Shown here: positions 35,058 to 44,610 of the stretch, one piece after another
Numbering within the stretch: position 1 is the stretch's first letter
Layout: each line of letters begins with the position of its first letter
Source of the DNA: a phage
Sequence record: PZ452594.1
DNA: 64,000 nucleotides
Direction: 5' to 3' (one strand)
Notes under the pieces: generated by a model
The model's input: only the letters and a program-made list of their open reading frames with translations
Databases searched by the model: none
What the model was told of the DNA's origin: nothing
Position numbers and translations under genes: made by a program

Positions 35058-35359
35058 TAGTATTTTTCCTCTGGTTGGAACACAGCACGGCAAGCCCACA
35101 TACTTGCTTCTTTGAGTTTCGTTTTAGCAATAGTTAACTGATCGAGGCTTTCGGCGTAATTCTTCGCGAGTTCATCATCTTCACAGCTATCAAATGCTTC
35201 CCAAAATTCATCGTATAAAGCATCAAAGATAAGTCCTAAACGAACTTCAGCGTCTTTGATAGCATTCACTTTACCGATTTTCTCTTCAGTATGCGGCTTA
35301 TAACCTTTAATGTCTTCAATCATATTTGACTTCCTCACCAGTACATAAATCATATTCAA
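35057..35359 (-). CDS. hypothetical acidic protein (100 aa)
   Basis: ORF track; start uncertain. Confidence 0.4.
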
Positions 35360-35537
35360 CTAAACGAATAGGTTCATGAATGCCATATCCCTGAACAGAA
35401 ATTTCTGTCGTAGGATAAATTCCATCAATATCACCCATATTCCACGCTTCGTTAAATTGCTGTTCGCCTGAATTACTAAACCACTCGGCGAAAGCATTTA
35501 GCACATCTTTAGAACCTTCAATAATTATCTTTGCCAT
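35316..35537 (-). CDS. hypothetical protein (73 aa)
   Basis: ORF track. Confidence 0.4.
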   Translation of the reverse strand: MAKIIIEGSKDVLNAFAEWFSNSGEQQFNEAWNMGDIDGIYPTTEISVQGYGIHEPIRLVEYDLCTGEEVKYD

Positions 35538-35899
35538 TATAAGCTCTCAGTAAAGGTACGAGCAATAACGTCGCGCTGCTGTTCCGGAGTCAGAGAGTTA
35601 AAGCGAACTGCATAACCGGATACACGGATGGTCAGCTGTGGATATTTTTCCGGATGCTTAACTGCATCTTCCAGAGTTTCACGACGCAGAACGTTAACGT
35701 TCAGGTGTTGACCACCTTCAATTTTAACTGTAGGCTGTGGCTCAATTTCAATTTCACGAGCATGCAAACCGTAGAAAATTTCTGGGTCTACAAAAGAGTC
35801 CTCTTTAAAGGTTTTAGAGACAATAATTCGTGCTTGAATACCATCTTCAAAATAAATAGTACCTTTATGTGTGCCTTCAAGAATTTGATATGCTTTCAT
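35537..35899 (-). CDS. autonomous glycyl-radical cofactor (GrcA/YfiD-like, 120 aa)
   Basis: C-terminal glycyl-radical motif [13 protein letters not shown]; the 3' third of the gene is visibly more GC-rich than the rest. Confidence 0.75.
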
Positions 35900-36913: not shown

Positions 36914-37387
36914 TTATTTGAACGATTTAACGTACTGAATAGAACCTTTACTATTTACGAAAGCGATTTTACCATTTTTATTATACATGGTAGCAGTACG
37001 CTGATAGCCATAAGTTTGTTTACCAGATTGATAACCAACTAATGCGAAATTATCTTCGCCCATTTTATTCTGTTTAGCGCGAATGCGTTCATGACCATGT
37101 GCCATAAGAACCTTAGCATCACCAGTTGCAATGGATCTACGAGTTTTTTCATCTTCAACTGTATTAACAAAGTCGTCAAATGAATCAAATTTAGCATGAG
37201 ATTTATTATACAGTTTTCCATCTACTGCATAATTATATCCCTGTACATCCATCTCAACTTCTGTACCATCATCCAATACAGCAGTGATTTTTTGACCTTT
37301 TTTAAATTTCAAAAGATCAGTAAAAGATTCAGCAATAATTTGAGAATTAATAGCTGCTTCAGTGATAAATTCTTGATATGTTTTCAT
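36914..37387 (-). CDS. internal-protein-like protein with N-terminal capsid-targeting sequence (157 aa)
   Basis: begins MKTYQEFITEA (T4 IP-type CTS ending in the prohead-protease E|A motif); ATG at 37385-37387 after AAAGGAAAC. Confidence 0.6.
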   Translation of the reverse strand: MKTYQEFITEAAINSQIIAESFTDLLKFKKGQKITAVLDDGTEVEMDVQGYNYAVDGKLYNKSHAKFDSFDDFVNTVEDEKTRRSIATGDAKVLMAHGHERIRAKQNKMGEDNFALVGYQSGKQTYGYQRTATMYNKNGKIAFVNSKGSIQYVKSFK

Positions 37388-37396
37388 ATGTTTCCT

Positions 37397-37813
37397 TTAA
37401 ATGTAAATATTTTTACCGTAATACTTATACCAATGTGGTTTCATTAAAATTTTTTCATCAAGTCGTTGTTGACTCAATTTAATAGCTGATTTGCATGGAT
37501 TATAATCATTTTTCCATTCTACTGGAATATCGCTGATGTCAGGAACTTCAGTATCTTTTATACTGAACCCGCGTTTTAAGCATTCCGTTATAATGTCCGA
37601 TTGACGCTTTCGCAAAAATTCTAACTTATCGTAAAAGAAAGTAACATGACCAGAACCTAAAATAAATTTAGAAGATATTTTAAAATCTTTAACGCGCTTA
37701 CCGTTTGCCACATGCTTACGAACTATACCAAAAACACGCGGCAATTCACGGTATTCTGCGATTAAATGTTGATCAGCAAGTTCAGATACTAAAGTCAAAT
37801 TAATACGAGTCAT
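37397..37813 (-). CDS. denV: endonuclease V, pyrimidine-dimer DNA glycosylase (138 aa)
   Basis: [38 protein letters not shown]... matches T4 DenV with divergence. Confidence 0.85.
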
Positions 37814-43153: not shown

Positions 43154-43228
43154 TGGTATCCCGCCCTGGGATCGAACCAGGACCGCAAACTTAGAAGGAT
43201 CGTATGCTATCCATTACACCAGCGGGAC
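43154..43228 (-). tRNA. tRNA-Arg (anticodon UCU), CCA encoded
   Basis: hand-folded GTCCCGC...CTTCTAA...GGTTCGATCC...GCGGGATACCA. Confidence 0.75.
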
Positions 43229-43233
43229 ATAAT

Positions 43234-43899
43234 TTAAAATTTCATTTTTCGACCTTTAAACCATCCTTCTGGAATTGGGTCAGTTTTCTTAATACGTTTA
43301 GAAACTTTTTCATCTAATGAATGAATCCACATCATACCAAATTGGGAATTCTTTTCACCTTTCTGGTGATTATTTTTAGCGTGAATTTCTTTCATTTTAT
43401 TAATAGTTTCAAGAGTATGATGCTTATTTAAAAATCTGCTATTATTTAAAAATTTTTCCTTGTATTCAGGAGTTGACCATAAACGTTTAAATACATTTGA
43501 ACCATTTTGACGATATTTTTCTTGAAGTAAAATATCATTTTTAAAACGTGACTTAAACGATTTAGCTCCTTTTAAACTAGCGTCTTTCTTCTGATTTAGC
43601 ATCTCAGGAATATTTATATGATCCCATCCGCCTTCACCGCCAAGTTTTAAATTATACACATCTGGTCTATTTAAAAACTCTTCTGTGACAATATTTTTCT
43701 CGGCTTCAAGCATAGATTCTTTATCATCAAAATATTCTAATATTTCTTTAGAAAAATTTTCTATACCATACCTGTCTTGGGCTCTTTTTAATAATTTACC
43801 AGAACCCATATATCCATCATCTAAATTTTCGGTAGAATGCACACCAATATAAATTTTATTATTAATTTTATTTGTTATTTTATAAAGATAAAAATGCAT
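43234..43899 (-). CDS. segB: GIY-YIG homing endonuclease (SegB-like, 221 aa) inside the tRNA cluster
   Basis: GIY-YIG motif FYLYKITNKINNKIYIGVHS; ATG at 43897-43899; the longer track ORF would overlap tRNA-Tyr. Confidence 0.65.
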   Translation of the reverse strand: MHFYLYKITNKINNKIYIGVHSTENLDDGYMGSGKLLKRAQDRYGIENFSKEILEYFDDKESMLEAEKNIVTEEFLNRPDVYNLKLGGEGGWDHINIPEMLNQKKDASLKGAKSFKSRFKNDILLQEKYRQNGSNVFKRLWSTPEYKEKFLNNSRFLNKHHTLETINKMKEIHAKNNHQKGEKNSQFGMMWIHSLDEKVSKRIKKTDPIPEGWFKGRKMKF

Positions 43900-43945
43900 A
43901 TCAGTCCTTAATAAAGAACTGAGCGTCTCACGACGAGTCATAAAT

Positions 43946-44032
43946 TGGTGGGGAGTGATGGAGTCGAACCACCCGAGTCGCAATGACAATGAATTTACAG
44001 TCCACACCGCTACCTCTACGGGATAACTCCCC
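43946..44032 (-). tRNA. tRNA-Tyr (anticodon GUA), long variable arm, CCA encoded
   Basis: hand-folded: acceptor GGGGAGT/ACTCCCC, anticodon loop CTGTAAA, T-loop TTCGACT. Confidence 0.6.
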
Positions 44033-44041
44033 TAATTAATT

Positions 44042-44118
44042 TGGTGACCCAGACCAGATTTGAACTGGTAACCTTTCCCTTATGAGGGGACTGCTGCTAA
44101 CCATTGAGCTACAGGGCC
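44042..44118 (-). tRNA. tRNA with CAU anticodon (Ile by T4 analogy, or Met), CCA encoded
   Basis: anticodon loop CTCATAA; T-arm ACCAG-TTCAAAT-CTGGT. Confidence 0.6.
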
Positions 44119-44119
44119 T

Positions 44120-44195
44120 TGGTGCTGATTGACGGAATCGAACCGCCGACCTTCTCATTACAAGTGAGTTGCTCTACCTACTGAGCTAAATCAGC
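44120..44195 (-). tRNA. tRNA-Thr (UGU), CCA encoded
   Basis: anticodon loop CTTGTAA; acceptor GCTGATT/AATCAGC. Confidence 0.75.
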
Positions 44196-44197
44196 AA

Positions 44198-44284
44198 CGG
44201 AGGCGATAGGATTCGAACCTATGAATCGCCGGAGCGACTGCCGGTTTTCAAGACCGGTGCATTAAACCACTCTGCCACGCCTCC
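44198..44284 (-). tRNA. tRNA-Ser (UGA), long variable arm, CCA not encoded
   Basis: anticodon arm CCGGT-CTTGAAA-ACCGG; acceptor GGAGGCG/CGCCTCC. Confidence 0.75.
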
Positions 44285-44286
44285 AG

Positions 44287-44360
44287 TCTCCATACAAGGA
44301 TTTGAACCTTGGACCTCCTGATCCCAAATCAGGCGCTCTACCAAACTGAGCTACACGGAG
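44287..44360 (-). tRNA. tRNA-Pro (UGG), CCA not encoded
   Basis: anticodon arm CCTGA-TTTGGGA-TCAGG; T-arm CAAGG-TTCAAAT-CCTTG. Confidence 0.7.
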
Positions 44361-44370
44361 TAAATTAAAT

Positions 44371-44444
<74 letters not shown>

Positions 44445-44449
44445 AAATT

Positions 44450-44536
44450 TGGTGCGAGAAGTGGGACTCGAACCCACAAGGAAATCATTCCGCAGCATTT
44501 TAAGTGCTGTGCCTTTACCAATTTGACCATTCTCGC
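44450..44536 (-). tRNA. tRNA-Leu (UAA), long variable arm, CCA encoded
   Basis: anticodon arm CAGCA-CTTAAAA-TGCTG; acceptor GCGAGAA/TTCTCGC. Confidence 0.75.
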
Positions 44537-44537
44537 G

Positions 44538-44610
44538 CTGGGAATAAAGGACTCGAACCTTTGCATCCTGGAATCAAAATCCAGTGCCTTACCAACTTGG
44601 CTAATTCCCA
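44538..44610 (-). tRNA. tRNA-Gln (UUG), CCA not encoded
   Basis: anticodon arm CTGGA-TTTTGAT-TCCAG; T-arm AAAGG-TTCGAGT-CCTTT. Confidence 0.75.

Follow-up and report, generated by a model that had tools for sequence, protein, structure and literature searches.

The described systems closest to the locus analyzed here are the stand-alone glycyl-radical cofactor GrcA (YfiD) of E. coli, the T4 protein Y06I, and the C-terminal domain of PflB and TdcE. As relayed in PMC8683613, T4 Y06I and E. coli YfiD are both activated by the pyruvate formate-lyase (PFL)-activating enzyme and restore PFL that has been fragmented by O2 (Wagner et al., 2001). Residues 1–60 of YfiD, a disordered segment, help it to bind cleaved PFL; residues 61–127 fold like PFL residues 693–759 and carry the radical. 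A further comparison is offered by cyanophages, in which psbA and psbD, host-type genes of T4-like virulent phages, swap segments with the host by intragenic recombination (Sullivan et al., 2006; PMC1484495).

Here we describe the Y06I ortholog, vs.6, in a window of T-even phage DNA (the whole stretch analyzed, 64 kb of sequence record PZ452594.1, to which all positions below refer). Both vs.6 and the biochemistry of its product have been described before; the addition is its evolutionary mosaic, in which a 3′ segment (hereafter, the patch) is identical to host grcA. No earlier description of this mosaic, or of host tracking, was found in the searchable literature, where only functional papers and a Pfam note on the gene turned up; older papers may contain one.

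Like T4 Y06I, the window protein is encoded between vs.7 and vs.5 by a gene with the same E. coli-derived patch. The two differ at residue 73 (His in T4, Arg in both the window and E. coli) and at a few synonymous sites; in the core, the match is to a rare E. coli allele for the window and to the common one for T4. E. coli GrcA (PDB 6OWR) resembles the vs.6 product in being a stand-alone protein of about 14 kDa, with an identical C-terminal 60 residues, 175 identical nucleotides, and a homologous N-terminal half. However, the N-terminal half of the vs.6 protein is only about 27%–35% identical to that of GrcA and is 7 residues shorter; additionally, the E. coli gene sits at ung-grcA-eamB, whereas vs.6 lies in a phage early-gene cluster. 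The C-terminal domain of PflB and TdcE has the same fold and RVSGYAVRF motif (PflB residues 697–759 aligned), but its DNA is only about 76% identical to the phage patch; the source of the patch is grcA, and not pflB or tdcE. The likeness to cyanophage psbA and psbD is that a virulent T4-like phage carries its own version of a host metabolic gene, one whose host protein is easily damaged, and exchanges segments of it with the host copy. Unlike those genes, vs.6 belongs to phages of enterobacterial hosts, concerns an anaerobic enzyme, and has a patch that comprises one whole structural domain with a fixed 5′ junction. Because the rest of vs.6 is far diverged from the host gene, only half of it would be able to recombine, in contrast to psbA and psbD.

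Identity and genomic setting of vs.6

The vs.6 open reading frame occupies 35537–35899 on the minus strand, encodes 120 amino acids, and is identical in DNA sequence (100%) to vs.6 of phage RB18. Its translation ends with [29 protein letters not shown], and the ORF with a glycyl-radical C-terminus that the first-pass annotation had proposed is thus present, on the minus strand. The product is identical to T4 vs.6 (NP_049730, Y06I) at 119/120 residues, and scores 66.8 bits against the Pfam Gly_radical model (PF01228; cut-off 22.2). The top solved structure is E. coli GrcA (6OWR, E = 8.6e-42), followed by PflB residues 697–759; alignment to both places the predicted glycyl-radical site at Gly95 within the RVSG95YAV motif (codon at 35615–35617, minus strand), corresponding to GrcA Gly102 and PflB Gly734. 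The protein is small and stands alone, with no catalytic barrel of a glycyl-radical enzyme, and its stop codon overlaps the start of the next gene. The RVSGYAV domain, the stand-alone size, and full-length homology are all traits of the GrcA family (TIGR04365, IPR011140) that are present in vs.6, although divergence of the N-terminal half keeps its score against the TIGR04365 equivalog model at 153.3 bits, under the cut-off of 170. On the T4 data, the protein would nonetheless act as GrcA does.

That N-terminal half had been called unrelated to GrcA, a view that profile–profile comparison overturns: the phage and bacterial N-terminal halves align end to end (hhalign probability 96.7%, E = 3.5e-10, 27% identity). 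The N-terminal half of vs.6 is an old, diverged GrcA homolog. The C-terminal 60 residues, by contrast with the half just described, are nearly invariant in protein across bacteria and phages. The homolog in Cronobacter phage leE has the same C-terminal residues at 60/60 positions, but only 151/180 nt of the corresponding DNA; protein identity is therefore found here without DNA identity, and amino-acid identity alone, which had been read as a sign of recent transfer, is no evidence of recent exchange.

Of the two roles suggested for the product, a spare part for O2-damaged PFL agrees with what is reported for the T4 ortholog in the secondary account cited above, and would by analogy extend to vs.6. 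The other, a spare part for the phage's own NrdD, finds no counterpart among the NCBIfam matches at E ≤ 0.01, which include no NrdD model and are all to PFL/GrcA-type or PFL-like enzymes.

The genes on the same strand are ordered nudE, e (lysozyme), denV, vs.8, vs.7, vs.6, vs.5, vs.4, vs.3, regB, vs.1, vs, and tk.4. Immediately downstream of vs.6, the ORF at 35316–35537 (minus strand), annotated as vs.5 in RB18, begins with an ATG that overlaps the vs.6 stop codon. Scans for promoters and terminators returned nothing beyond chance. The region between e and vs.8 (36914–37813) varies among close relatives of the window: the window has e, denV, a 157-aa ORF similar to RB32ORF122c, and vs.8; T4 has e, ipIII, ipII, denV, and vs.8; and RB18 has no denV in this region, which makes the window distinct from RB18 even though the two share the same vs.6.

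The host-identical segment and its donor

Nucleotide alignment with the grcA locus identified a run of 175 nt without mismatch between positions 35547–35721 (minus strand) and grcA of E. coli strain 2EC1. The run encodes the structured glycyl-radical domain (GrcA residues 68–125), and residues 61–120 of the vs.6 protein equal GrcA residues 68–127 at 60/60 positions, bearing out the proposal that the last ~59 residues are nearly identical to GrcA. All 5426 of 5426 complete E. coli genomes carry a grcA that is 96.6%–100% identical to the patch, nearly all of them 98.3%–98.9%; over the 183-nt 3′ block, 176–180 nt are identical to E. coli grcA alleles. The phage-type 5′ half (35722–35899, minus strand) is diverged from grcA, with 18/51 amino acids and, in codon alignment, 74/153 nt (48%) identical to E. 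coli, as compared with 178/183 nt in the 3′ block (Fisher p = 3e-27). The upstream junction is abrupt, with similarity to grcA collapsing beyond the patch. The division of the gene at the DNA level that the first-pass annotation described is therefore real, but its host-like segment, placed at 35537–35716, requires adjustment: the actual run is 35547–35721, and the last three codons are of phage type.

These last codons form a short tail (35537–35546, minus strand; the end of codon 118, codons 119–120, and the stop codon) in which the 3 mismatches to E. coli fall, the phage reading GAG AGC TTA TAA and E. coli GAA AGC CTG TAA. The states of the tail are variable among phages and partly genus-specific. 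The tail overlaps the start of vs.5 (TAATG) and also a GAGAG motif, located 6 nt before the vs.5 start, that probably acts as a Shine–Dalgarno sequence in the translation of vs.5.

At megablast sensitivity, no part of the 64-kb window other than the patch matches an E. coli chromosome. A search of phage records with the 252 nt at the 5′ end of the E. coli grcA locus found no match; phages with a longer host tract or an entire host grcA were sought in this way and discarded as candidates, no phage record having DNA like the 5′ half of grcA. The one further E. coli match of the window is a tRNA-like stretch at 43942–44035, which is 92.6% identical over 94 nt to an annotated tRNA-Tyr of plasmids about 110 kb in size, present in 255 genomes; it has no chromosomal match.

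Base composition changes along the gene, from 34.3% GC over nt 1–178 of vs.6 to 48% in the core, against a window mean of 34.9% (SD 4.4%); only 0.6% of 175-nt windows reach the GC content of the core, and nearly all of these lie in the tRNA cluster. That cluster comprises eight tRNA genes identified with Rfam (43157–44610, minus strand), and together with adjacent DNA from about 42.8 kb it accounts for almost all the other 175-nt windows that are as GC-rich as the patch. The GC shift noted in the first-pass annotation thus survives windowed analysis, but it is only partly a host signal. GC at codon positions 1 and 2 rises from 0.41 in the 5′ half to 0.54 in the core because of amino-acid composition, and it also rises, though less, in the most diverged phage homologs without a patch (from 0.43–0.48 to 0.47–0.50). 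The host-specific part of the shift consists of third-position GC (GC3) and codon choice. GC3 increases from 0.20 in the 5′ half to 0.39 in the core; Karamvirus EnC15, which has no patch, shows neither an overall GC shift nor a rise in GC3. All five leucine codons of the core (5/5) are CTG, which makes up 6% of leucine codons in the long ORFs of the window. The codon choice of the core falls within the 2% tail of the phage's own genes, and the 5′ half has phage codon usage.

Nucleotide identity narrows the donor. The E. coli 3′ block is identical to that of Citrobacter amalonaticus at 168/183 nt and to that of Salmonella at 151/183 nt; the synonymous distance of the patch to E. coli alleles is 0–0.1, whereas E. 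coli itself is separated from Citrobacter by 0.38 and from Salmonella by about 1. Since identity is higher to E. coli than to the next genus, Citrobacter, the donor lies inside Escherichia. Bacterial grcA has no comparable discontinuity: E. coli differs from Citrobacter, Salmonella, and Klebsiella by similar synonymous divergence in both halves, which argues for transfer from host to phage. Together, these comparisons indicate that the 3′ half of vs.6 derives from the Escherichia chromosomal grcA by recombination.

At block sites 80 and 155, the window core carries A and T, respectively, both synonymous changes relative to the common E. coli allele. This exact allele was found in 2/5426 E. coli genomes, 2EC1 (NZ_CP047571.1) and LR-45 (NZ_AP027532.1), and among phage records only in RB18. 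The allele common to RB18, the window, and these two strains may stem from a direct transfer, whichever way it went, or from repeated mutation of two mutable third positions.

Distribution among phages and hosts

The commonest E. coli allele was compared with 50,697 phage records, of which 292 reach at least 99% identity and a further 351 reach 95%–99%. The carriers of the E. coli patch are Tequatrovirus and Mosigvirus, about 640 genomes that include T4 and T2 and isolates from Shigella, Yersinia, and Salmonella. Recombination with host grcA, as first proposed for the window, is upheld insofar as nucleotide identity puts the donor in Escherichia, but it is not particular to the window phage. 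By the refuting condition that the first-pass annotation itself set, the window gene is no closer to the host than its T4 ortholog, which departs from the commonest E. coli allele at 1 position of the 173-nt core. A 116-kb record, EC.W14-2, with a core 100% identical to E. coli was considered as an independent event in a T5-like phage, and rejected as a Tequatrovirus record.

Seven Tequatrovirus-type and four Mosigvirus-type vs.6 genes were compared between and within genera. Of the fixed differences that separate the two genera, 13 lie in the 5′ half and none in the core, and pS between the genera is 0.349 and 0.097, respectively. Within Tequatrovirus, pS is 0.130 in the 5′ half and 0.101 in the core; within Mosigvirus, the corresponding values are 0.076 and 0.088. 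Sliding identity between the genera is 0.83–0.93 in the 5′ half, 0.97–1.00 in the patch, and 0.70–0.73 from the start of vs.5, which marks the 3′ limit of the homogenized tract. In one Tequatrovirus-type and one Mosigvirus-type gene, the core is the same and equals the commonest E. coli allele. Because core divergence between genera does not exceed the diversity within them, the patch was installed or refreshed after the genera split; because core polymorphism within genera is not below that of the 5′ half, conversion must be a rare event and not a continuous process. All phages examined share the 5′ junction, a constancy equally compatible with a single founding event for each host and with repeated events. 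Polymorphisms shared with the host were also considered as proof of repeated conversion (4/5 E. coli polymorphic sites recur in phages), and set aside as weak, as two come from the strain picked as best match and the sites look mutable.

The Tequatroviruses PYps15T, vB_YepM_ZN18, and fPS-2, isolated on Yersinia, have E. coli-type patches (98%–99% identical). The grcA core of Yersinia itself is far more diverged, with a dS of about 1.6 from E. coli. Given the E. coli-type patch in these isolates, the patch may report the usual host of a lineage and not the isolation host.

A second host-like patch is found in the Klebsiella phages of Jiaodavirus. As reference, grcA genes were taken from a metagenome scan where their product was exactly GRCA_KLEP7, a protein of the K. 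pneumoniae complex; the set of species-representative genomes does not include K. pneumoniae, and against that set Jiaodavirus genes are only 85%–87% host-like. Compared with K. pneumoniae grcA, Jiaodavirus KPV15 shares an exact run of 140 nt and has 1 difference in block positions 0–157, and KP185 has five differences, as opposed to at least 16 from any other host. The patch carries two Klebsiella-type residues (LLDAVEH instead of LEDAVKH). All further Jiaodavirus differences fall at block positions 158–179, so that the 3′ junction is unlike that of the E. coli phages. At least 95% identity to the Klebsiella allele was observed in 114 Klebsiella phage records, as compared with 85%–89% in E. 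coli phages, and the pattern is reciprocal for the E. coli allele. The 5′ halves of the Jiaodavirus and Tequatrovirus genes are 74% identical, as ordinary diverged phage orthologs. The Jiaodavirus patch is thus a separate replacement from its own host, K. pneumoniae, with the same 5′ boundary. An E. coli patch in Tequatrovirus and Mosigvirus and a Klebsiella patch in Jiaodavirus together make at least two host-specific replacements.

No recent patch was found, on comparison with grcA of the hosts covered here, in Slopekvirus, Pseudotevenvirus, Karamvirus, Krischvirus, Aeromonas phages, T5-like phages, or jumbo phages; among these, Krischvirus and the T5-like phages include E. coli phages that have a homolog without the patch. 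Unpatched lineages are separated from the nearest host by a pS of 0.5–0.7, which is saturated or nearly so. The features that mark psbA-type mosaics can be recognized in vs.6: a near-identical host segment, an abrupt junction, nesting within the host genus, host composition, and separate host-specific exchanges.

Mechanism, alternatives, and implications

We consider it highly probable that vs.6 is a spare-part cofactor gene whose 3′ half was converted from host grcA, on at least two occasions. By inference from the T4 ortholog and YfiD, the host PFL-activating enzyme would install a radical on Gly95 during low-oxygen infection; the vs.6 protein would dock into host PFL that oxygen has cleaved at Gly734 and restore its activity, and the restored PFL would keep up the supply of acetyl-CoA and ATP after phage shut-off of host gene expression. 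As YfiD residues 61–127 are the structured domain, the patch (GrcA 68–125) coincides with the part that must fit host PFL and its activase. The phage-specific half of vs.6 would, on the YfiD model, correspond to the disordered binding region.

The gene is a mosaic with its 3′ half overwritten by the host chromosomal grcA, presumably through gene conversion during infection, in which phage DNA would recombine, homologously or homeologously, with the host chromosome or its fragments. Early breakdown of host DNA by T4 counts against such recombination. T4 recombines routinely with cloned homologous DNA. The UvsX recombination of T4 works on short homologies (PMC8262927). The converted tract would be limited at its 5′ side by the end of phage–host homology, at the codons for EGGQHLN, and would stop at its 3′ side within the last 3 to 9 codons. 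A tract that forms only where the two genes are similar enough would yield a constant 5′ junction at EGGQHLN and no host-like DNA further upstream. Replacement occurred at least twice, from E. coli grcA into Tequatrovirus and Mosigvirus, and from K. pneumoniae grcA into Jiaodavirus. The match to the host allele may be advantageous, or may be a neutral by-product of homology.

The constancy of the 5′ junction could also be explained if a T-even ancestor had acquired grcA, or only the 3′ half of it, once and long ago, with host-likeness maintained since then by very strong purifying selection; the near invariance of the C-terminal protein domain across bacteria and phages, and its full retention in leE with no recent exchange, fit such a history as well. 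However, selection on the protein does not preserve synonymous sites, at which the unpatched lineages have reached the pS given above and bacterial genera a dS of 0.4–1.1, whereas not one synonymous site separates the window core from an E. coli allele. Host specificity of the patches is additionally reciprocal, E. coli versus Klebsiella. An RNA element as the cause of nucleotide conservation was ruled out, as no Rfam family overlaps vs.6 and the predicted fold of the patch RNA is ordinary, not better than that of shuffled sequences (z = −0.88). An ancient capture is therefore very unlikely. A transfer in the reverse direction, from phage to E. coli, is more improbable still: E. coli grcA is collinear with the grcA of Enterobacteriaceae over its full length, with similar dS in both halves, it is present in every one of the 5426 genomes, and the codon usage of the patch is of the E. 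coli high-expression type and not that of the phage. The restriction of the exact window allele to 2EC1, LR-45, and RB18 does leave room for a small back-transfer to these two strains. An assembly or contamination artifact, with host reads merged into a phage contig, has a negligible probability, given that the same mosaic and junction occur in about 640 independently sequenced phage genomes, the reference T4 and T2 included, and that the reading frame is intact between a tail and flanks of phage type.

Alternatively, there may have been one host-to-phage event per host species, followed by phage–phage spread among co-infecting genera. T-even phages recombine readily, the 5′ junction is identical in Tequatrovirus and Mosigvirus, and the core polymorphism within genera, as high as that of the 5′ half, indicates that events are rare. 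However, the homogenized tract is bounded exactly by the 175 nt homologous to the host, with flanks of 72%–88% identity starting at once on both sides, and an exchange between phages would have no reason to stop at the limits of host homology. The modal phage allele is also the modal E. coli allele, to which the 292 records noted above are nearly identical. We consider spread of this kind unlikely, and favor conversion from the host chromosome as the source of the patch.

A stronger version of host conversion is that occasional chromosomal gene conversion keeps the structured half of vs.6 matched to the current host's grcA allele. This is a tentative idea, and on balance a somewhat doubtful one. 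If it were true, the patch would be an adaptive compatibility module for host PFL and PFL activase, and would show which host genus a strictly virulent phage had recently used. Two-way exchange would then be possible, with the rare allele of 2EC1 and LR-45 a footprint of a virulent phage in surviving bacteria.

On the conversion reading itself, a strictly virulent phage that degrades host DNA would nonetheless have had one structural domain overwritten by the chromosomal copy of its host, at least twice and from two host species, with the junction of the replacement at the start of the structured domain. The best-studied phage–host pair would gain an equivalent of the cyanophage psbA mosaics, and T4 and E. 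coli would allow direct measurement of how often host-to-phage conversion occurs and what it requires genetically. The patch could additionally be used as a marker of the recent host of a phage lineage. Some caution in annotation is warranted, as pipelines may label such genes as host contamination or plain "GrcA".

Two individual records deserve mention. In IMGVR_UViG_2974754850_000001, the 5′ half of vs.6 is out of frame with the 3′ half, leaving an 80-aa ORF, which may represent a sequencing frameshift or a pseudogene. NZ_JBQPOM010000029.1, which bears a Firmicute label ("Vagococcus sp. WN89Y"), contains an enterobacterial grcA with a protein 91% identical to E. coli GrcA; this protein falls in the K. 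pneumoniae GrcA cluster, and the assembly is probably mislabeled or contaminated.
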